A stretch of DNA of 32,000 bases from Nitrososphaerota archaeon. GTDB taxonomy: Archaea; Thermoproteota; Nitrososphaeria_A; Caldarchaeales; Calditenuaceae. The notes under the pieces were generated by a model. That model did not search any database and was not told where the DNA came from. It worked only from the letters and a program-made list of their open reading frames with translations. Shown piece by piece: positions 57 through 10,285 of this stretch. The DNA lies in NCBI GenBank assembly GCA_041641295.1, contig JBEPYO010000001.1, positions 1,318,038-1,350,037 on the forward strand, written 5' to 3'. The translations under genes were made by a program, and so were the position numbers. Positions within the stretch are counted from its first letter, which is position 1. Each line of letters opens with the position of its first letter.

Positions 57-1754
57 ATGCCTGTACAATTCAAAAGATACTGCATGTCTAGGGATGGGAA
101 AATTTCAAGACGTGCTGCGCTAAGCACAGGAGCTAAGGTCGCTACAGCGGCGGTCGTAACCGGTGTTGTGGGCGGAATAGCGGGCTACCTCGCAGGGACC
201 TCCGCCCAGCCGGCCAGAGAGGTCACGAGGACTCTGACACAGACCGTGACGCAGCCCGGAGCCGGAGCCCAAACAGTAACACAGACCGTGACTAGAACAC
301 AGACAGCAACTGTAACAGCCACCGCACCAGTAGGCGAGATAAAGCCGGAGCTGTCCATCACTTTCGCCTCACCGGAGTGGCTGCCAGGAAGGCTCACAGG
401 CCTCATAGCTAAAGACTTCCCCGCTTGGTCTAAGGCCACAATCGGGAAGGCGGTAGAGGTAAAGATGGACCTGATTCCCTGGGACGCTATTTTCGACAGA
501 CTTTCAACAGTACTGGCTGCCAAGTCCAAGGAGCCAACACTTTTGATATCTGACAGCCAGTGGCTCGGCCAGTTCTATGTTGGTGGACATATACGAAGGC
601 TAAACGATATTATCGCGAGGGACCCCGAACTCCAGCAGCTACTCAACAGGTTCGACCCCTCTCTAGTCTACTTCTACATGACGTACCCCCAGGGGAACAC
701 CAATAACATAGTCGGCTTCGCGCATGAGGGTGATGTACTGCTATTCGTCTACAGGTATGACTTATTCTCTCACCCGACAGAGAGGGAGAACTTCAAGGCA
801 CAGTACGGATATGACCTTCCGCTAAACTATGAAGACTGGTACCCAGCACAGCTCGACTGGTACCAGATACGCGACATAGCCAAGTATTTCACTAGGAAGG
901 CTGGTGATGAACTGGCCGGGAAGCGTTTAGAGGAGGACTTCTATGGAATAGCTCTACACATGTCAAGAGCCTACGACGCCATCGCCTGCCCGTTCGGCTC
1001 AATACTGTACAGTCACGGAGAGTATTGGTGGGACCCCGAGACGGGAGAAGTTGAGGGATGGATTAATAGTCCGAGGGCGAGGCAGGCTCTCGAGTTCTAC
1101 GTCTCGCTGGTTCCCTACTCACCACCGAACGCCCTCGAGATATGGTTCGACGAGGCCAATGCCGTGATGCAGGCTGGCAGAGTGGCCATGATCTATAACT
1201 GGGCTGGATTCCTGCCAAGCCTCTTCGACCCCGCGGCATCTAAAGTATACAACGTGATTAGAGTAGTGCCGCCACCTGGTCACAAAGGAGAGGATGGAAT
1301 CTTCAGAAGGTATAGTGGAATTGGAGGACAGCCAATGTGTATAAACGCCTATAGCGACTATGCCGAGGAGGCTCTTGCCTTCATAAAATTCTGGTTCCAG
1401 CCTCAGAATCAGCGGAAATGGGCTGAGGGTGGTGGCGGTGTCTGCATCAGGGACATCATCCAGACCGAGTGGTTCAGAAACCTCACACCATACAACCGGG
1501 CCTATGCCGACTCCATAGCATTCCAGGTCGACTTCTGGAACGTTCCGTTCTTCTTCGAGATGCTGACGGTCGTACAAGAAGAGATACATGCAGCACTAGC
1601 GGGCAGTATTAGTCCACAGACAGCACTAGACAACATGGCACGTCGGCACAAGGAGATAATTGAGAGGGAGAACTACCCCGCAGCGTTTGAGAAATATGGG
1701 AAGCCTGCGAAGAACGTGGCGCAGCTTATAAGACAAGGACTACCCATCGGCTAA
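57..1754 (+). CDS. ABC transporter substrate-binding protein (family 1 / CUT1 sugar-type) with Tat-like signal anchor
   Basis: 565-aa ORF. It has a twin-arginine motif SRRAAL followed by a hydrophobic helix (AKVATAAVVTGVVGGIAGYLAG), then a Thr/Gln-rich linker (TQTVTQPGAGAQTVTQTVTRTQTATVTATAP). It is the first gene of an SBP-permease-permease-ATPase cluster. The true start is probably ATG at 84 (MSRDGKISRRAAL), about 30 nt downstream of the A/T box AAAGTATATAT near 48-58. Confidence 0.85.
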   Translation: MPVQFKRYCMSRDGKISRRAALSTGAKVATAAVVTGVVGGIAGYLAGTSAQPAREVTRTLTQTVTQPGAGAQTVTQTVTRTQTATVTATAPVGEIKPELSITFASPEWLPGRLTGLIAKDFPAWSKATIGKAVEVKMDLIPWDAIFDRLSTVLAAKSKEPTLLISDSQWLGQFYVGGHIRRLNDIIARDPELQQLLNRFDPSLVYFYMTYPQGNTNNIVGFAHEGDVLLFVYRYDLFSHPTERENFKAQYGYDLPLNYEDWYPAQLDWYQIRDIAKYFTRKAGDELAGKRLEEDFYGIALHMSRAYDAIACPFGSILYSHGEYWWDPETGEVEGWINSPRARQALEFYVSLVPYSPPNALEIWFDEANAVMQAGRVAMIYNWAGFLPSLFDPAASKVYNVIRVVPPPGHKGEDGIFRRYSGIGGQPMCINAYSDYAEEALAFIKFWFQPQNQRKWAEGGGGVCIRDIIQTEWFRNLTPYNRAYADSIAFQVDFWNVPFFFEMLTVVQEEIHAALAGSISPQTALDNMARRHKEIIERENYPAAFEKYGKPAKNVAQLIRQGLPIG

Positions 1755-1798
1755 ACCCAAAATAAACTCAAATACACCATTAATTACGTGATTTTTGT

Positions 1799-2677
1799 AT
1801 GACTTTACAAACCGCTACTGGTAGTCGGCTAGTGAAGATTTTCCCCATACTACTCATACTACCTGCAGTTGCACTTGTTACGTTCTTGGTAATCTTCCCA
1901 CTAATCTGGGCTCTCGGCCTTAGCTTCTACTCATATAACGTTATTCGCGGAGAAGCACCTGTTTTCGTCGGTGTCGAGAATTATTACAGGCTCTTAAATA
2001 GTCTGGAGGTGTGGAGGAGATTCGTTTTAACCGGGCAATTCGTCTTCTACGTAGTAAGTATTGAATTCCTAATTGGATTTGGGCTTGCTCTTCTTTTCTA
2101 TAACCAGTTCCGTGGTAGGCGGCTTGCAATAACACTTGTAACAACACCCCTACTAGTGGCACCTGTGGCGGTGGGAATCTTCCATCGATACCTCTTTGAC
2201 GCAACATTTGGCGTCTATAGCTATTTTGCACAGCTGATAACGGGACAGTCAGTCAAGATACTCTCTCAGCACCCAATGTTCGCAATTGTATTCATGGACG
2301 TCTGGCAGTGGTCGCCATTCATGATGCTCTTCATACTTGCTGGCCTCGAAGCAATTCCGAGACACATGTTGGAGTCATCAGAGATTGACCGATTGTCTAT
2401 ATTCAATAAATTCCGATATGTCATCTGGCCCACGATTAGACCGTTGGTGGCTCTTGCCCTTCTTTTTAGGACGATGGACGCCTTCAGGACCTTCGACACA
2501 ATCTTCACTCTGACCGGTGGTGGGCCTGGAACTGCTACTGAGGTGTTGTCAATACAGATTTACCGCATAGCCTTCCAGTTTTTCAGGACAGGTGAGGCCA
2601 CCGCGCTAGCATTTATATTCTTAGTAATCATAGTGCTTTTGACGAACATATATCTCAGGTTGGCGAGGAGGGAGTAG
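1799..2677 (+). CDS. ABC sugar transporter permease (MalF/UgpA-like)
   Basis: 292-aa polytopic membrane ORF with about 6 hydrophobic helices and an EAA-like loop (LESSEIDRLSIFNKFRYVIWPTIRP). It lies immediately after the SBP gene. Confidence 0.9.
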   Translation: MTLQTATGSRLVKIFPILLILPAVALVTFLVIFPLIWALGLSFYSYNVIRGEAPVFVGVENYYRLLNSLEVWRRFVLTGQFVFYVVSIEFLIGFGLALLFYNQFRGRRLAITLVTTPLLVAPVAVGIFHRYLFDATFGVYSYFAQLITGQSVKILSQHPMFAIVFMDVWQWSPFMMLFILAGLEAIPRHMLESSEIDRLSIFNKFRYVIWPTIRPLVALALLFRTMDAFRTFDTIFTLTGGGPGTATEVLSIQIYRIAFQFFRTGEATALAFIFLVIIVLLTNIYLRLARRE

Positions 2678-2679
2678 AG

Positions 2680-3585
2680 ATGGCAAATCATAGAAACAAC
2701 AGGCGTGGCAGGCACAAGGTCGTGAAAACTGTTCTCATCTATCTATTCACCATTATCGCTGTCATCTTCTTCATCTTTCCCATTTACTGGCTCGTAGCCA
2801 CATCGTTGAAGACAAGGGCTCAGGCCTTCAGCACACCGCCACTCTTCGTCTGGGAGCCGACATTTAGAAACTTCATCGATATTTTCCTGAAGAGGCAGAC
2901 AGAGATCGAGGCAATAACCGGGCAGGAGCTAGAGTTGGCCACTGGTGCTGAGACTTTCTTCTACAATAGCTTCGTAGTTACTTTCTCAAGCATCATCATA
3001 GCTACAGTTATAGGGGTTTTCGCCGCATACAGCTTCTCCAGATACAAACCTGCAGGAACTAACACTCTAATGTTCTTCATCCTCTCCACGAGGATGCTGC
3101 CAGCCATCGTAGTTGCCATTCCCATCTACTTCTTTTACAGGAGTCTAGGCCTCTACAACACGTATATCGGACTCATTCTGCTCTACACAATGTTCAACCT
3201 CCCATTCGCGGTCTGGATGATGAAAAGCTTCTTCGACGAGGTGCCTCGTGACATTGAGCAGGCTGCTCTAGTTGATGGCTCAAACCCGGTCAAAGTCTTC
3301 TACAAGATCGCCCTCCCACAAGTGTTGGTGGGCCTGGGGGCAACGATCGGTTTCTTGATAATCAATGTCTGGAACGAATTCCTTTTTGCCTTGCTGCTGA
3401 CAGAGAGGGCGACTCGGACGGTGCCAGTCATGATAGCGGGTACCAGGGGAGAAGTTGGCATCAACTGGGGTCTAATCGCAGCTATAGAGACGCTCTACAT
3501 TCTGCCGGCTCTCGTTCTCATATTCGTTCTTCAGCGCTTCTTACTGAGGGGTATGACGTTCGGTACGGTGAGGGGTGCGAAATAG
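2680..3585 (+). CDS. ABC sugar transporter permease (MalG/UgpE-like)
   Basis: 301-aa membrane ORF with an EAA loop (DIEQAALVDGSNPVKVFYKIALPQ). It starts 3 nt after the previous stop. Confidence 0.9.
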   Translation: MANHRNNRRGRHKVVKTVLIYLFTIIAVIFFIFPIYWLVATSLKTRAQAFSTPPLFVWEPTFRNFIDIFLKRQTEIEAITGQELELATGAETFFYNSFVVTFSSIIIATVIGVFAAYSFSRYKPAGTNTLMFFILSTRMLPAIVVAIPIYFFYRSLGLYNTYIGLILLYTMFNLPFAVWMMKSFFDEVPRDIEQAALVDGSNPVKVFYKIALPQVLVGLGATIGFLIINVWNEFLFALLLTERATRTVPVMIAGTRGEVGINWGLIAAIETLYILPALVLIFVLQRFLLRGMTFGTVRGAK

Positions 3586-4674
3586 TTGACAAGGGTCGAG
3601 ATACGTGGCTTAAAGAAGTCTTTTGGGGCTGTTGAGGCGCTTAGGGGGGTTAACTTGGAGGTTGAGTCTGGCGCTCTAGTAGCGCTATTAGGGCCGACAG
3701 GTGCTGGAAAGACGACCCTCCTTAAGTGCATCGCCGGTGTTGAAGAGCCTGATGCCGGGGATATACTCTTCGATGGACAGAGTGTGTTGAGAACTCCAGC
3801 TTGGAGACGAGATGTGGCCATGTTCTTCCAAACTTATGCGCTCTATCCCCACATGAGTGTATACGACAATATAGCTTACCCGTTAAGGGAGCGTAAATGG
3901 AGCCGACAAGACATTGACAGGTCGGTGAAGGCTGTGGCAGAGAAGCTGAGGATAGCCCATCTCCTGGACAGGAAAGACCCGTCTACACTTAGCGGTGGCG
4001 AGATGCAGCGTGTAGCACTTGCACGTACACTGGTCAGGAATCCGAAAGTCTTTCTCCTCGATGAGCCCATCTCGAACCTTGACGCCAAGCTTAGGGAGGA
4101 GATGAGGACAGAGTTCAAAAGGCTGCACAGGGAGTTGAAACAGACAATCATTTACGCTACCCCCGACTTCTTGGAGGCTTTTGCAGTTGCCGAGAAAGTA
4201 GCGGTGATAAAGGACGGCGTGATATTGCAGTATGATACTCCCATGAATTTGCTGAGAAGGCCGAAAAACAGGTTTGTAGCCACTTTCATTGGCAGTCCCA
4301 CCATAAACATTATGCGTGGCGTCATTAGGCGGGTGGCTCATGGCTGGGAGTTCTCAACAACAGGTCTGAAAATCCAGCTGAGCAACATAGGAGCCTCTTC
4401 CAAGCTCTTGGACGGCTCCGAAGTGGAGCTTGCGGTCAGACCCCAAGATATAGTCTTGGAGGCTTCTAAGAACGGCAATGCCTTCAAGGCAAAGATTCTG
4501 GCCGCGGAGAGGCTGGGATATGAAACGATAGTTACCCTGAGTCTCGGCGAGGTCGAGTTGAAGGCAGTGACTAAGGGGATGAGGTCATATAAATATGGTG
4601 ATGAAGTGACAATCAATATTCCGGGTGATAGGGTCATCCTATTTGACGTGTCAAGTGGGGAGGCGATGTATTAG
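3586..4674 (+). CDS. ABC transporter ATP-binding protein, MalK/UgpC type (NBD-1, non-canonical H-loop)
   Basis: Walker A GPTGAGKTT, Q-loop MFFQTYALYP, signature LSGGEMQRV, Walker B VFLLDEP, D-loop SNLD. The switch region is IIYATPDFLEA where the consensus is YVTHDQ.EA, so His is replaced by Pro. The MalK-type C-terminal domain begins FIGSPTINIM. TTG start directly after the upstream stop. Confidence 0.9.
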   Translation: MTRVEIRGLKKSFGAVEALRGVNLEVESGALVALLGPTGAGKTTLLKCIAGVEEPDAGDILFDGQSVLRTPAWRRDVAMFFQTYALYPHMSVYDNIAYPLRERKWSRQDIDRSVKAVAEKLRIAHLLDRKDPSTLSGGEMQRVALARTLVRNPKVFLLDEPISNLDAKLREEMRTEFKRLHRELKQTIIYATPDFLEAFAVAEKVAVIKDGVILQYDTPMNLLRRPKNRFVATFIGSPTINIMRGVIRRVAHGWEFSTTGLKIQLSNIGASSKLLDGSEVELAVRPQDIVLEASKNGNAFKAKILAAERLGYETIVTLSLGEVELKAVTKGMRSYKYGDEVTINIPGDRVILFDVSSGEAMY

Positions 4675-4947
4675 ATGAAGAAGAACTTACTAGAAAGGGT
4701 TGGGCTTGCCTTGTCCTTCATCGGTCTTGGACTCGTATTCCAGCCCTTTAGTAGCGAGCTACTATACTATGGTTTTATCCTGATAGGAATCGGAGGGTTC
4801 ACATACGTCTACTCGACCTACTTGCCGAATAATCCTAGCGGTGAGGTCGGTCTCAGAACTATGGTGAGGTGGCTCGTGACACTCGTGGGTGTTGTAGTAT
4901 TCTTTGTTATGCTATCGATTTATCTTGTCCCTCTCTTGGTGGTGTAG
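4675..4947 (+). CDS. small integral membrane protein (3 predicted TM helices), unknown function
   Basis: 90-aa ORF. Its ATG abuts the stop of NBD-1 (TAGATG) and its stop lies 5 nt before the likely start of NBD-2. Three hydrophobic stretches: VGLALSFIGLGLVF, LLYYGFILIGIGGFTYVY, WLVTLVGVVVFFVMLSIYLVPLLVV. Confidence 0.5.
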   Translation: MKKNLLERVGLALSFIGLGLVFQPFSSELLYYGFILIGIGGFTYVYSTYLPNNPSGEVGLRTMVRWLVTLVGVVVFFVMLSIYLVPLLVV

Positions 4948-4952
4948 GTGGT

Positions 4953-6047
4953 TTGGTGAAGGTACGCGCTGAGAATGTAACCAAGATTTTCAAGACGTTG
5001 AAGGCGTTAGACAACGTCTCAGTAACTGTTGACCATGGGTTATTCTTTTGTCTTCTTGGACCTAGCGGGTCGGGCAAAACTACTTTGATGAGGATTATAG
5101 CCGGTCTGGAGACCCCTACGAGCGGCTCAATATTCTTCGACGATGAGGATGTCACCGGCTTATCACCGTCTGAGAGGAATATAGCTATGGTTTTCCAGTT
5201 CCCCTCAATATATCCGAGCCTAAACGTGTACGACAACATCGCTTTAGCCATCAGACGAGAGGTCAAAAGCAAGCAGGAGGAGCGTGAAAGGGTTAAGTGG
5301 GCTGCCTCTCTTCTCCGCATAGAAGAGCATCTGAATAAGAGGCATCATGAGATTGACTTTGGGATACTGCAGCGCGTATCCATAGCTAAAGCGATAGTGA
5401 GGAATGCGCAGGTATACATATTCGACGAGCCACTCAGCAACCTCGACACGAAACTGAGAGAATCTTTGAGGTCCGAGTTCCAGCGCATACACAGGGAGGT
5501 CGGAGGCACCTTCATCTACGTCACCCATGACCAGTTGGAAGCCATGGCGATAGCTGATAAGATAGGTATACTTCGAGATGGACGGCTCCAGCAGGTGGGA
5601 ACTCCTGACGAGATCTACTACCATCCCGTTAACAAGTTTGTCGCCTATTTCATAGGTTCACCCACTATCAACTTCATCGATACGAGACTGAGGCTGGTTG
5701 AGGGTAGGCTCTATGCTATGGTTGGGGACTCGCATATAGAGTTAGGAGAGGCGGCTAAACTCGCGCTACAGTCGCGACAGGACAAGCTAGAAAATATGCA
5801 GCTGGGTGTGAGGCCTCACGACATCAGCATATCTACCACTCCAGTAAGCGGCTCAATTCCATGCCTCGTAAATTACATAGAGTCGCTTGGTACAGAGCTC
5901 CTTGTAGAGTTAAAGAGTGGGTCTGCAACATTCAAGTGTCTCTGCGACGCGGCCCTAAACATTAAAGAGGGTATGCAGGTTTATGCTGTTTTCAACAAGG
6001 AGCACATCCACGTGATAGACCCTGAGACGGAGAAGGTAATTATTTAA
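4953..6047 (+). CDS. ABC transporter ATP-binding protein, MalK/UgpC type (NBD-2, degenerate signature motif)
   Basis: Walker A GPSGSGKTT, Q-loop MVFQFPSIYP, Walker B VYIFDEP, H-loop IYVTHDQLEA. The signature position reads IDFGILQRV instead of LSGGQ.QRV. MalK-type C-terminal domain FIGSPTINFID. The ORF track starts at 4869, but that extension overlaps the small membrane gene. TTG 4953 or GTG 4956, just after its stop, fits better. Confidence 0.9.
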   Translation: MVKVRAENVTKIFKTLKALDNVSVTVDHGLFFCLLGPSGSGKTTLMRIIAGLETPTSGSIFFDDEDVTGLSPSERNIAMVFQFPSIYPSLNVYDNIALAIRREVKSKQEERERVKWAASLLRIEEHLNKRHHEIDFGILQRVSIAKAIVRNAQVYIFDEPLSNLDTKLRESLRSEFQRIHREVGGTFIYVTHDQLEAMAIADKIGILRDGRLQQVGTPDEIYYHPVNKFVAYFIGSPTINFIDTRLRLVEGRLYAMVGDSHIELGEAAKLALQSRQDKLENMQLGVRPHDISISTTPVSGSIPCLVNYIESLGTELLVELKSGSATFKCLCDAALNIKEGMQVYAVFNKEHIHVIDPETEKVII

Positions 6048-6052
6048 GATAT

Positions 6053-6637
6053 TTGGGTAGAGTTTGTGGCCGAGGTATATTGTCGGGGCTTGTCCCGCCT
6101 TGGTGGCGTGTTTTTTGCGAGCCGGGGTCGGAATGGATTGTTGACGATTTTGCAACCGTGCTTTCCGAACTTGAGAAGAGGCCGCCGAATAGACAGCTCC
6201 TCAGTCCTGTGGTGAGTAGCTTCATAGCGGGATTACTCCAAGCCTCAGGCGGGCTGGGATACTTACAGGTCTCTGAAAACCCAATGATCTTCACCCCATT
6301 CGTCGCGCTGAGCTGTGACGAGGATACGGCCTCTTTTGTTATTAGGCAGGTGGGTGATGCGTGGCTGTCAAAGAGGGGCTCGAGGACGGTGGTTTACATC
6401 TTGGGGCTGAGGGCCGTGATACTGTTAAAGGTCATAGGCCCCTACCTCCGCGGCTTTAAGCACATAGTTTATGACGCTCTGGTTAGCTATGGTTACAAGT
6501 TGGGCGAAGATGGTCCCTCAAGGGTTGCTCGGAGGCATGGCTTGTCTTTCCGCTCCTCGATAGTTACCTTAGAAGGTAGGCGGTTAAGGCAAATAATTTT
6601 TGAGGGGCTTAGAAGACAGAGAGTCTCCTCTACTTGA
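6053..6637 (+). CDS. hypothetical protein with a single degenerate LAGLIDADG-like motif
   Basis: The 194-aa ORF contains FIAGLLQASGG (compare LAGLIDADG) followed by a pattern typical of the LAGLIDADG fold: beta hairpin GYLQVS..FTPFVALS, helix DEDTASFVIRQVG, strands RTVVYILG, helix LRAVILLKVIGPYLRGFKH. There is no in-frame ATG before the motif, so the start is uncertain (TTG 6053, GTG about 6158 or about 6209). Confidence 0.35.
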   Translation: MGRVCGRGILSGLVPPWWRVFCEPGSEWIVDDFATVLSELEKRPPNRQLLSPVVSSFIAGLLQASGGLGYLQVSENPMIFTPFVALSCDEDTASFVIRQVGDAWLSKRGSRTVVYILGLRAVILLKVIGPYLRGFKHIVYDALVSYGYKLGEDGPSRVARRHGLSFRSSIVTLEGRRLRQIIFEGLRRQRVSST

Positions 6638-7040
6638 CAGCATATATCTTGAGTTTAAGGCCGTCGGGACCAGCTACTCCCTCAGCAAACCCCAAAGTCC
6701 AGTTCAGATGTCTGAGCTCGGGTATCGCTGTCTGGAAAAGAACAAACGCCCTTACATTGTATCCCTGGCCAGCGGGGACGGCGTATCCGCGCCTGAGTGC
6801 CGAGATTACACCCTTATCTGTCTTTATAGTCTCGTGCACATGGACATAGACACCGTCTCCACGATCCGTCTTAACCGTTGACCCATAGTCTACCCCCTCA
6901 TATGAGCCATTTATTTTCCCCGAGACCTTTCCCTGCAGGTAGAAGTCGGTCCTACCACCTGTAGCTCCGCCACCGACCTCAACAGTCCTAACTATCTTAG
7001 CTTCCAGCTCATAGAGAAGCTCTAAATCCATCGATATCAC
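6630..7040 (-). CDS. DUF3237-like small beta-barrel protein
   Basis: 136-aa ORF. The pattern LELLYELEAKI..VEVGGGATGGRTDFYLQGKVSGKINGSYEG......DGVYVHVHETIKTDKGVIS....NWTLGFAEG...LKLKIYAV resembles my recollection of the DUF3237/UPF0311 family. Its ATGA overlaps the stop of the upstream hydrolase gene. Confidence 0.5.
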   Translation of the reverse strand: MISMDLELLYELEAKIVRTVEVGGGATGGRTDFYLQGKVSGKINGSYEGVDYGSTVKTDRGDGVYVHVHETIKTDKGVISALRRGYAVPAGQGYNVRAFVLFQTAIPELRHLNWTLGFAEGVAGPDGLKLKIYAVK

Positions 7041-7867
7041 CTCTCCACAAACCAGGCTGATTCTGCGACGTATCTTAGACTCTCTCCTGGATTGAGGAAA
7101 ACGAGGTTAGTGGATGGCGACATGACAGAGACGGCCTGTCTAAGTTTCTCTTTATCAAGCCTCTGCCTCGGGAATGTATCGTAGTGGCATGGAATGGCTA
7201 TCTTTGGTTTCAATATCTTGCACGCATATGCAAACTCTCTTATGCCCATGTTATACTGGCCTCCGGCGGTCATTATGCATATTTCAGGGCTGTATAACTC
7301 CTGAATCATGTGCATCTCCATCGAGACTCCCGTGTCTCCTGATGCATAGATCACAGGGCCGTCGGGGAATGATATCACATACCCAGCCGCGGCGTCCGGA
7401 TACCTAGTCTTGTTTTTTACATAGTCGTAATGCATAATGCTGCTTGAGTGGAATGCAGGAACCATGGTGTATGTGACTCCCCTAATATTGCAGCTTCCAC
7501 CCACATTGAGTGGGTACATCCAATAGTTCCTCCCCGATTTTGGGTCTGGGTCTGAGTCGTATGGTATTCCATGTATGTCGGCATACATTCCAACCTCTGG
7601 GGTGCATATCAGGCATGCGCCGGTCTTCTTCACGATCTCGATAGCGTGTCCAATATGGTCTATGTGGCCGTGTGTGACAAGGACCACAGTCGCCTCCTTT
7701 ACATCGTCAAGGCCGATAGGGCTTACAGGACTGGTCCATCCACCTGCGATTCCGGGAGACTTGAGCCACGGGTCGAGATAGATCTTCTCATCTTTCCACT
7801 CGATATAGAATGATGCGTGCCCGATATATTGTATCTTAACTTCTGGCATAGCGTTGTGAAAAAGCAT
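7037..7867 (-). CDS. metallo-beta-lactamase-fold metal-dependent hydrolase
   Basis: 276-aa ORF with the HxHxDH motif (VLVTHGHIDHIGH) and downstream His/Asp ligand positions (FHSSS, SGDTG, PCHYDTF). Confidence 0.8.
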   Translation of the reverse strand: MLFHNAMPEVKIQYIGHASFYIEWKDEKIYLDPWLKSPGIAGGWTSPVSPIGLDDVKEATVVLVTHGHIDHIGHAIEIVKKTGACLICTPEVGMYADIHGIPYDSDPDPKSGRNYWMYPLNVGGSCNIRGVTYTMVPAFHSSSIMHYDYVKNKTRYPDAAAGYVISFPDGPVIYASGDTGVSMEMHMIQELYSPEICIMTAGGQYNMGIREFAYACKILKPKIAIPCHYDTFPRQRLDKEKLRQAVSVMSPSTNLVFLNPGESLRYVAESAWFVER

Positions 7868-8924: not shown

Positions 8925-10285
8925 GAACTCATCTGAAGCAGGTGACTAGGTAGACTAACACCTGCGAGTGCAGCCGCTTCCTTCATGACTTCGATAAGGT
9001 AAGCATCGTCTATCAGCCTACCCGTGGCCGAGACCTGTCCATTCTTGTAAGCGTTCTTAAACCTGAACTCCCACGAATCAATACCCAGCTTCCTGGCATC
9101 CCTCTCTATCTGCAACTCCACGGCGTAAGAGACTTCAAAGACTCCGTATCCCCGCATGGCACTCGAGGGCTGCCTATTAGTGTATACACAGTATCCCTCA
9201 TAGTATACGTTGGGGATTTGGTACGGTCCCGAGAGGTTAACTGTTGCCTTTATGACACCGTATGGAGACGTTCTGGTGTACGCTCCCGAGTCGTGGAGGA
9301 GTCTCGCCTTTCTCCCTAGGATCAGACCATCACTTGATAGAGCGTCCTGAATCTCAATCTTAACGGCTGGGCGCGTAGTAGACACGGTGAACTCCTCCTC
9401 CCTAGTCCACCTCCATTTGACAGGTCTCCCAACACACATCGCGGCAACAGCGACCTGCATCTCAAATTCTGGGTCCACCTTGCCTCCGAACCCTCCACCC
9501 ACCGCTGGGGCAACAACCCGTATATTCGACGCGGGAATCTTGAGGATTGTAGCTACATTATCCCTCACAAAATACGGCGCCTGGGTCGTAGTGTATATTG
9601 TGAGCCTCTGCCCCGGCTCAGGCTTCGCCACACATACATGTGGCTCAATCGGCGCATGCTCGATTGGCGGAATCAGGTAGCTGCCCTCGACCACGTAGTC
9701 CGCCCTCTTAAAAGCCGCCTCCACATCACCCCTCTTCACCAAGAAGAAGGGCCTGCCAGGCCTGCCGGGCCTAGTTGCTCCGTCCATTCCTGAGCCATAG
9801 ATGAAGGCGTTTATACCCCACTTCGTGATGACGGGCGCACCGGGCTTCAGTGCCTCCTCCATGTCGAGAACAGGGGGCAGCTCCTCGATCTCAACTTCCA
9901 CCAACTGAGCCCCCTTAGCAGCAGTTTCTTCATCTTTAGCGACTACGAGGCATATTGCCTCTCCCTTATAGTTAACCTCACTCTCTGGAAGAACAGGCTC
10001 ATCAGGCGGACCTATACCTATTCCAGCCATGTTGACGTGAATGTTATTAGGCACATCTTTAGCGGTAATTATCCGCACGACACCCGGCAGCTTTTCAGCC
10101 TTCGAAGTGTCAATCTTCTTGATCCTACCACGTGCCACGGGGCTGCGAACAGCCTTTACCCAAAGCATCCCTGGGAAAGATATCTCATCGACGTATTGTG
10201 TGGCGCCGGTGACGTGGCTCAACAGCTGGACATTCTTAACAGGTGAGCCTACAACCGAGAACTGACTCGACATTGCCTCTCTCAC
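8915..10285 (-). CDS. molybdopterin-dependent hydroxylase large subunit, N-terminal part (a/b-hammerhead plus first MoCo-binding domain)
   Basis: 456 aa. GATQYVDEISFPGMLW, GVVRIITAKDVP, GGGFGGK, and SSAMRGYGVFE at the active-site loop position. The latter is not the VAYRCSFR loop of genuine form-I CO dehydrogenase. Confidence 0.85.
   Translation of the reverse strand: MREAMSSQFSVVGSPVKNVQLLSHVTGATQYVDEISFPGMLWVKAVRSPVARGRIKKIDTSKAEKLPGVVRIITAKDVPNNIHVNMAGIGIGPPDEPVLPESEVNYKGEAICLVVAKDEETAAKGAQLVEVEIEELPPVLDMEEALKPGAPVITKWGINAFIYGSGMDGATRPGRPGRPFFLVKRGDVEAAFKRADYVVEGSYLIPPIEHAPIEPHVCVAKPEPGQRLTIYTTTQAPYFVRDNVATILKIPASNIRVVAPAVGGGFGGKVDPEFEMQVAVAAMCVGRPVKWRWTREEEFTVSTTRPAVKIEIQDALSSDGLILGRKARLLHDSGAYTRTSPYGVIKATVNLSGPYQIPNVYYEGYCVYTNRQPSSAMRGYGVFEVSYAVELQIERDARKLGIDSWEFRFKNAYKNGQVSATGRLIDDAYLIEVMKEAAALAGVSLPSHLLQMSSWG

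Follow-up and report, generated by a model that had tools for sequence, protein, structure and literature searches.

Organization of the locus

We analyzed a stretch of 32,000 nucleotides from the genome of a Nitrososphaerota archaeon (contig JBEPYO010000001.1, positions 1,318,038 to 1,350,037; hereafter the window), and we focus here on an operon of its plus strand (57-6047) for an ATP-binding cassette (ABC) importer. This operon encodes a substrate-binding protein (SBP), two permeases and two MalK-type ATPases, or nucleotide-binding domains (NBDs), which are 39% identical and have a small membrane protein encoded between them. The genes, in window coordinates, are the following:

57-1754, plus strand: SBP of CUT1 type, 565 amino acids (aa), Pfam SBP_bac_1 (8e-21), with an N-terminal Thr-rich linker
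1799-2677, plus strand: permease 1, MalF/UgpA/GlcT-like, 292 aa, Pfam BPD_transp_1, best NCBIfam matches UgpA and GlcT, both under the cut-off
2680-3585, plus strand: permease 2, MalG/UgpE/GlcU-like, 301 aa, Pfam BPD_transp_1, best NCBIfam matches GlcU and MalG
3586-4674, plus strand: NBD-1, "P-type" MalK-like ATPase, 362 aa, Pfam ABC_tran and TOBE_2/OB_MalK
4675-4947, plus strand: small membrane protein, 90 aa, ATG directly after the NBD-1 stop, Q23-P24 invariant
4953-6047, plus strand: NBD-2, "S-type" MalK-like ATPase, 364 aa, TTG start at 4953 with a GTG alternative at 4956, Pfam ABC_tran and TOBE_2/OB_MalK

The junctions between permease 2 and NBD-1 (3585/3586), between NBD-1 and the small open reading frame (ORF) (4674/4675) and between the small ORF and NBD-2 (4947/4953) are tight, which fits with co-translation. 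An ORF beginning at 4869 is just an upstream extension of the NBD-2 frame.

An SBP_bac_1 binding protein followed by two BPD_transp_1 permeases is the composition of a CUT1 operon. The nearest solved chain to the SBP is the trehalose/maltose-binding protein of Thermococcus litoralis (1eu8, 6e-19). Both ATPases match ABC_tran (1e-37 for NBD-1, 6e-29 for NBD-2) and TOBE_2 above the cut-off and OB_MalK below it, and both align over their full length with MalK, AlgS and PH0022-type solved chains. The motif G[IV]RPE[DH] described for CUT1 NBDs (PMC11519228) reads AVRPQD in NBD-1 (283-288) and GVRPHD in NBD-2 (285-290): the VRP.D core is intact in both proteins, neither has the Glu, and NBD-1 has another residue for the Gly as well. 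At the level of named NCBIfam families, the best model for both NBDs was the UgpC subfamily, with 341 bits (NBD-1) and 323 bits (NBD-2) for a cut-off of 432, the MalK and GlcV models also remaining below theirs. Membership of a named NCBIfam family was thus rejected, no model being reached at cut-off by the NBDs, by the binding protein or by the bacterial relatives described below, whose P-type and S-type NBDs likewise fall under every NCBIfam cut-off. The motor of CUT1 importers is described as a homodimer of one NBD (PMC11519228, citing Schneider 2001), whereas here there are two different NBD genes, and each would carry its motif lesion twice if it formed a homodimer.

Motif states and composite ATP sites

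The positions of the motifs were set by phmmer alignment to solved MalK-type chains (AlgS 4tqu, 2it1, 2d62 and 1v43; E 1e-80 to 1e-83), the alignments being full length and gap-free around the motifs. In NBD-1, the Walker A GPTGAGKT (3691-3714), the Q-loop FFQ (Q82), the signature LSGGE (135-139; 3988-4002), the Walker B FLLDEP (4051-4068; D159-E160) and the D-loop SNLD are canonical. Its H-loop is ATPDF (4156-4170), with "iiyatpdfleaf" standing opposite "viyvthdqveam", so that Pro193 (codon 4162-4164) takes the place of the His. NBD-2 presents the reverse situation: the Walker A GPSGSGKT (5058-5081), the Q-loop VFQ (Q82), the Walker B YIFDEP (5415-5432; D158-E159), SNLD and the H-loop VTHDQ (5520-5534; His192) are canonical, whereas in the signature "heidfgilqrv" stands opposite "relsggqrqrv", which puts IDFGI in place of LSGGQ (residues 134-138; 5352-5366). 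The FIGSPTIN motif is present in both proteins.

In ABC ATPases, one NBD supplies Walker A, Walker B, the Q-loop and the H-loop of an ATP site and its partner supplies the signature, a head-to-tail geometry that is established for MalK dimers. Applied to the pair, this geometry brings both lesions together in one composite site, which we call site A (Walker A/B, Q-loop and H-loop of NBD-1, with Pro193, and the IDFGI signature of NBD-2) and which is degenerate, while site B (Walker A/B, Q-loop and H-loop of NBD-2 and LSGGE of NBD-1) is complete and fully canonical. The deviations of two non-identical NBDs are therefore co-localized in one composite site, as in systems with one degenerate and one consensus site.

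These observations agree with what the first-pass annotation had read in the DNA, namely two paralogous MalK-type NBDs both carrying FIGSPTIN, a first one keeping LSGGE with TPDF in the H-loop (His to Pro), a second one keeping VTHDQ with IDFGI as signature, and the two defects falling in the same composite site with the other site canonical. The domain matches, the alignments to solved chains and the head-to-tail geometry bear out each of these points. A misalignment hiding a canonical His or LSGGQ was considered and rejected, since neither is restored by a proper alignment to the solved chains or to the orthologues. From these motif states, we consider it quite likely that the product of the operon is an ABC importer of CUT1 type (type I) in which two different MalK-like ATPases work as an obligate heterodimer with a degenerate site A.

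Conservation of the asymmetry

Orthologues of the pair were searched in 31 genomes of the order (Caldarchaeales) and found in eight other genomes, five of the seven of the same genus (81-93% identity) and three of the four of another family (65-69%). All of them present ATPD[FY] and LSGGE in NBD-1 together with IDFGI and VTHDQ in NBD-2; the survey of related archaeal genomes that the first-pass annotation had proposed thus found the Pro-for-His and IDFGI substitutions kept in eight of eight orthologous pairs, and the asymmetry is evolutionarily conserved, as it is in degenerate/consensus-site systems. These orthologues are not assembly copies of a single sequence, their dS values going from 0.8 to more than 2. 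Compared with the closest orthologue, at a dS of about 0.8 which is not saturated, the ratio of nonsynonymous to synonymous substitution rates (dN/dS) was 0.048 for NBD-1, 0.041 for NBD-2 and 0.063 for the small ORF, and both NBD frames are intact in every orthologue.

These data bear on the idea that either gene is a duplicate on its way to becoming a pseudogene, with motif lesions that are neutral damage, which had been named from the start as the finding that would undo the proposal. The deviation of the motifs from the consensus is the only observation that speaks for it. The intact frames, dN/dS values of 0.04-0.06 (0.04-0.05 for the ATPases) and lesions that are identical at 65-69% identity across two families refute it, and P-type and S-type lineages common to Bacteria and Archaea, presented below, speak in the same direction; we consider that this explanation has practically no chance of being correct.

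Distribution of paired and solitary ATPases

The feature is not peculiar to this operon but belongs to a large family common to Bacteria and Archaea. In the genomes of the order, every NBD of the adjacent MalK-like pairs was aligned to one hidden Markov model. The S-type partner has perfect Walker A, Q-loop, Walker B and H-loop and a degenerate signature (LPAGE, LNIGE, LSLSE, LTVGE, LDVAT, LDVGG or ITAGQ), and the P-type partner keeps xSGGE and has a degenerate H-loop (STPDD, STFSV, ISSDP, ATFDS), a degenerate Q-loop (MFE, LFE, TFE) or both. Beyond the order, loci were retrieved from 185,579 species genomes through their similarity to NBD-2, and the same pairing was found in Rhizobiaceae, Mesorhizobium, Inquilinus, Geminicoccaceae, Spirochaetota, Atribacterota, Entotheonella, Bathyarchaeia and Thermoplasmatota. 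Altogether, 81 of the 82 two-NBD loci examined show P+S reciprocity, a proportion which is not an estimate of prevalence because the loci outside the order were chosen by similarity to NBD-2. One locus (L099, G022:C21:14500-17300), in which both copies read LTAGE and ATPDQ, was considered as a counter-example and set aside: its copies are 87% identical and strictly identical over residues about 45-250, with one N-terminus S-like (GPSGCGKT) and the other P-like (GPPGAGKT), so that it looks like the product of gene conversion or of mosaic assembly of a metagenome-assembled genome (MAG).

A neutral census took in all the other matches of the 31 Caldarchaeales genomes at an E of 1e-40 or less, minus one fragment interrupted by a stop. 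All the 52 solitary MalK-like genes with a readable context have xSGG[QE] and the His of the H-loop, and 21 of the 23 adjacent pairs are reciprocal P+S pairs, the two others being L099 and a partial one (L162, with LSGGM and LSRGM). Only two degenerate genes are unpaired; both stand at the start of a contig, where any partner would fall outside the assembled sequence. This census of solitary and paired genes shows that degeneracy and pairing go together, which can serve as a rule for annotation: P-type and S-type MalK-like ATPases come in pairs.

The two unpaired genes, one S-type and one P-type (L170, G010:C17:1-2600, and L171, G010:C6:1-2500), are both truncated within the region of Walker A. 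The stretch that codes for Walker A is almost the same in the two members of such pairs and seems to be a place where assemblies break, so that pairs could go unseen in fragmented MAGs.

The census also bears on a rival explanation in which the two ATPases work apart, either as alternative homodimeric motors under different conditions or with one of them acting as a regulatory or moonlighting protein. MalK-type ATPases are indeed shared between transporters (MsmK/MsiK), and alternative homodimers are possible for XacJ and XacK of Haloferax volcanii, both of which are canonical. Here, a homodimer of NBD-1 would lack the H-loop His at either site and a homodimer of NBD-2 would have IDFGI at both; the P and S genes occur together in the loci counted above and essentially never alone, the two unpaired cases lying at contig ends; the genes are tightly packed in one operon; and a strict LSGGE in the P-type together with a perfect Walker A, Q-loop and H-loop in the S-type is sensible only if the two proteins are complementary. 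We therefore regard separate motors as very improbable. In either homodimer the lesions would be doubled, and only a heterodimer has one complete site, which favors a predicted heterodimer of NBD-1 and NBD-2.

Among the distinct motif combinations, the parts of the consensus site are invariant: GPSG[CS]GKT, [VI]FQ, DE[PA] and VTHDQ in the S-type and the xSGGE signature in the P-type. The parts of the degenerate site vary, with 24 signature, 18 H-loop and 15 Walker A variants. Consensus-site motifs that are frozen while degenerate-site motifs drift are what one would expect from catalytic constraint on the consensus site alone. In the P-type, the Lys of Walker A is kept in all sequences but one and the Asp-Glu of Walker B is kept, which suggests that nucleotide binding at the degenerate site may be retained.

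One of the bacterial P+S importers stands in an informative context. In Mesorhizobium (L059, 9307-11911), an importer with the signature LPPGA paired with VFE and ATHDY lies directly upstream of the Dak1 and Dak2 subunits of dihydroxyacetone kinase and of a DeoC-type aldolase, and these neighbors suggest a triose, a polyol or a ketose as substrate of this branch.

Phylogeny of the pair

The relationships between the ATPases were analyzed with a tree of 93 sequences (IQ-TREE, LG+G4), whose root and deep nodes are insecure. NBD-1 falls in P-type-only clades with bacterial members (18 rows at 98/92 and 33 rows at 96/89), and NBD-2 in an S-type clade of six rows with GlpT-like, Bathyarchaeota and Terraquivivens sequences (99/97). 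Along the tree, the P-type label changes two times and the S-type label five times, versus about 30 when the labels are shuffled. From these clades and label counts, the pair is old and common to both domains, and transfer between Bacteria and Archaea is presumably behind the shared pair lineages. A second group has another history: in tandem pairs of Caldarchaeales (L010, L093-L098, L100-L102 and L104), the P and S members are sisters in one clade of 14 rows (70/98), which stands apart from the large clades that also hold Bacteria. Duplication of a MalK-type gene may thus have led to reciprocal degeneracy on more than one occasion.

Comparison with known transporters

Among characterized systems, we considered first the CUT1 importers MalFGK2, AlgM1M2SS, LpqY-SugABC and GlcSTUV. 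They share with our operon the SBP_bac_1 and two BPD_transp_1 components as well as the fold and the domain order of the NBD, the solved chains being 40-47% identical (E 1e-70 to 1e-83); they differ in having one ATPase gene, a homodimeric motor and two identical canonical sites, whereas our operon has two genes and one canonical site. The pentose importer XacGHIJK of H. volcanii is an experimentally studied CUT1 importer with two ATPases (PMC11519228, citing Johnsen et al. 2019), and it resembles our system as an archaeal operon in which adjacent MalK-type ATPase genes follow the permeases. Unlike here, both XacJ and XacK are canonical (LSGGQ in both, VTHNQ and VTHDQ) and neither site is degenerate. 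This rules out the generalization that every two-ATPase CUT1 operon is asymmetric, and two ATPase genes alone do not imply asymmetry. The peptide importers OppDF/DppDF are also of type I with heterodimeric NBDs, as we propose here; unlike ours, these NBDs belong to a different subfamily with Fe-S C-terminal domains. For DppDF of the E. coli importer DppABCDF, both sites bind ATP-gamma-S and both are proposed to hydrolyze ATP (PMC12136057).

The closest match in composition is the glycerol importer GlpSTPQUV, a genetically characterized system with a homologue in Cupriavidus metallidurans (Rmet_2229-2234), which is made of two ATPases, two permeases, a binding protein and a small integral membrane protein (PMC7912956). 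All six types of component recur in our operon. Operons of glp layout were located through their DUF2160 gene in four rhizobial genomes and two of them were read (L113/L114), the identity of the flanking genes being deduced from position and size. In order, they run from an ORF of glpD size through two NBDs, two ORFs of permease size and DUF2160 to a binding protein of ~574 aa and an ORF of glpK size. The GlpS-like ATPase is of P-type (GPTLSGKT, LSGGQ, ATTEP) and the GlpT-like ATPase of S-type, with canonical Walker A, Q-loop and H-loop (VTHDQ) and LTADQ as signature, so that a genetically characterized type of importer belongs to the reciprocal class. In the tree, the GlpT-like sequence clusters with NBD-2 in the clade described above, whereas the GlpS-like sequence does not cluster with NBD-1. 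A long binding protein of about 570 aa is found in both kinds of operon, although our SBP and the GlpV-like one of Rhizobium are only 20% identical (E 3e-13). The gene order also differs, with NBD-NBD-permease-permease-small protein-SBP in glp and SBP-permease-permease-NBD-small protein-NBD in our operon, and the small proteins are of different families, DUF2160 (PF09928) in glp and an unannotated family here. The motif asymmetry is unmentioned in the Glp papers that we examined (including PMC7912956), a coverage to which the original description (Ding et al. 2012, pmid 22343359) did not belong.

Asymmetric exporters (TM287/288, TmrAB, BmrCD, TAP1/2, CFTR, ABCC/ABCG5-G8; reviewed in PMC7756269 and PMC3971661) have, as here, two different NBDs whose H-loop and signature deviations meet in one composite site, with the other site canonical and the arrangement as a whole kept in evolution. 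They differ by their type IV/V folds, in which NBD and transmembrane domain form one chain, whereas our system is an SBP-dependent type I importer whose separate MalK-type NBDs carry TOBE/OB domains at the C-terminus. The loss of the catalytic Glu of Walker B in the degenerate site is called a "hallmark" in a passage of PMC7544095; the change of this Glu to Asp or to another residue, present in many exporters, is absent here, NBD-1 keeping D159-E160, and DEP is retained in all 28 P-type motif combinations.

Degenerate sites are treated in these two reviews (PMC7756269, PMC3971661) as a feature of exporters, in which they are said to be frequent, with no importer named, and a review on structural diversity likewise names only exporters. 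A literature search, whose coverage left out most subscription journals, found no CUT1 or type I importer for which a degenerate site is described, in line with the first-pass annotation, which had supposed that exporter-like asymmetry is undescribed in type I sugar importers. What appears to be new is that the degenerate-site asymmetry known from ABC exporters is now seen at the level of the motifs in type I importers, in a class that is apparently undescribed.

Proposed mechanism and its meaning

As judged from the motifs, the importer probably runs on one working ATP pocket. In the mechanism that we propose, NBD-1 and NBD-2 would form an obligate heterodimer. Site A would still bind ATP, since Lys42, Asp159/Glu160 and Gln82 are kept, would hydrolyze it slowly or not at all, and would help to hold the dimer together. 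Site B would hydrolyze ATP and reset the transporter, and with hydrolysis at site B alone, about one ATP would be spent per cycle. The 90-aa membrane protein with its invariant Gln-Pro would join the complex as a sixth subunit.

Several observations weigh against this mechanism or limit its reach. Site A keeps the catalytic Walker B Glu (Glu160) that many asymmetric exporters have lost, and it may therefore hydrolyze some ATP. Seven solitary PotA-like ATPases of the census (L157, L159, L161, L163 and L165-L167) have a Glu in the Q-loop (MMLENYALFPH) with a canonical signature and H-loop. These NBDs, presumably homodimeric, would carry the Gln-to-Glu change at both sites; this change alone need not mean a dead site, and some of the deviations counted as P-type therefore need not be disabling. 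Finally, the selection of loci by similarity to NBD-2, mentioned above, restricts what the count of reciprocal loci can say.

In a further alternative, the heterodimer would form with both ATP sites competent, Pro193 and IDFGI being tolerated or compensated, for instance by the retained Walker B Glu and the D-loop, and the asymmetry being kinetic or regulatory instead of on/off. The retention by NBD-1 of the Walker A Lys, the Walker B Asp-Glu, the Q-loop Gln and the D-loop SNLD speaks for it, as do the solitary NBDs with a Q-loop Glu, which show that some deviations are compatible with function. However, Asp and Phe stand where the signature should have the Ser and Gly that touch the gamma-phosphate, Pro stands in the H-loop instead of His, and the degenerate-site motifs drift (24 signature and 18 H-loop variants) while those of the consensus site are frozen. 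In model ABC ATPases, the mutations HlyB H662A and MalK H192R and mutations of the signature are each reported to nearly abolish hydrolysis on their own, which also speaks against two competent sites. We consider this alternative unlikely.

For the family as a whole, we lean, with some reserve, towards an ancient class of six-component importers in Bacteria and Archaea, including the glycerol system of Rhizobium, with a single catalytic site and a second site acting as a permanent ATP-binding latch. If this holds, these single-catalytic-site importers would correspond to what TM287/288, TAP and CFTR are among exporters. In the study of how ABC exporters work, degenerate ATP sites hold a central place. 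The number of ATP molecules used per importer cycle, and the alternate or joint use of the two sites, have been debated for decades on the basis of homodimers (MalK, HisP) in which a single site was mutated by design. For these questions, an importer family that is natural, conserved and widespread and has only one canonical site would offer a test system that needs no such engineering, its mesophilic members (the Glp systems of Rhizobium and Cupriavidus) being amenable to genetics and its thermostable archaeal members to structural study.

The small membrane protein

The sixth conserved component of the operon is a small membrane protein with an invariant Gln-Pro. The 90-aa ORF is conserved in all the orthologous operons, and an iterative search within the collected loci found homologues directly after the NBD pair in nearly all the bacterial and archaeal loci, their start codons overlapping or abutting the stop of the preceding NBD. 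Q23-P24 is invariant and G33 nearly invariant, in a consensus around QPF[ST]..L[FY]..GF. The reverse test, starting from the sequence of the small protein alone, gave three homologues out of three in P+S operons, with an overlap of 4 bp behind NBD(P)-SBP-permease-permease-NBD(S). Taken together with its sequence conservation, this position makes the protein probably a sixth subunit of the transporter. A profile search of 5.8 billion proteins found at least 1838 clusters, all "hypothetical" and almost none with a Pfam domain. The P+S importers thus bring to light a large group of small membrane proteins which lack annotation and seemingly belong to these transporters.

The 90-aa ORF has no match in Pfam or NCBIfam, and hmmscan up to an E of 10 does not give DUF2160. 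Homology with DUF2160/GlpU was considered and rejected, the iterative search from the 90-aa protein having recruited no DUF2160 proteins. PF09928 is unmatched in the source genome (93.8% complete) and matched in all four rhizobial genomes.

Neighboring genes

One more conserved gene follows the operon:

6053-6637, plus strand: conserved 194-aa ORF, beginning 5 nt past the end of NBD-2 and found at the same position in orthologous loci

This ORF has no match in Pfam or NCBIfam. It has counterparts after NBD-2 in both families (192 aa in L006, 187 aa in L009), and whether it is part of the transporter system is uncertain. Up to position 10000, no glpK or glpD was noticed among the ORFs, although no search aimed at them was made; the long ORFs beside the operon are a hydrolase resembling the MBL fold and a molybdenum hydroxylase, named from reading of their translations. 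On the minus strand (6630-7867), a convergent ORF of 136 aa and an ORF of 276 aa, which is the one resembling an MBL-fold hydrolase, adjoin the operon, and both also adjoin it in the orthologous loci of the two families (L002-L009).

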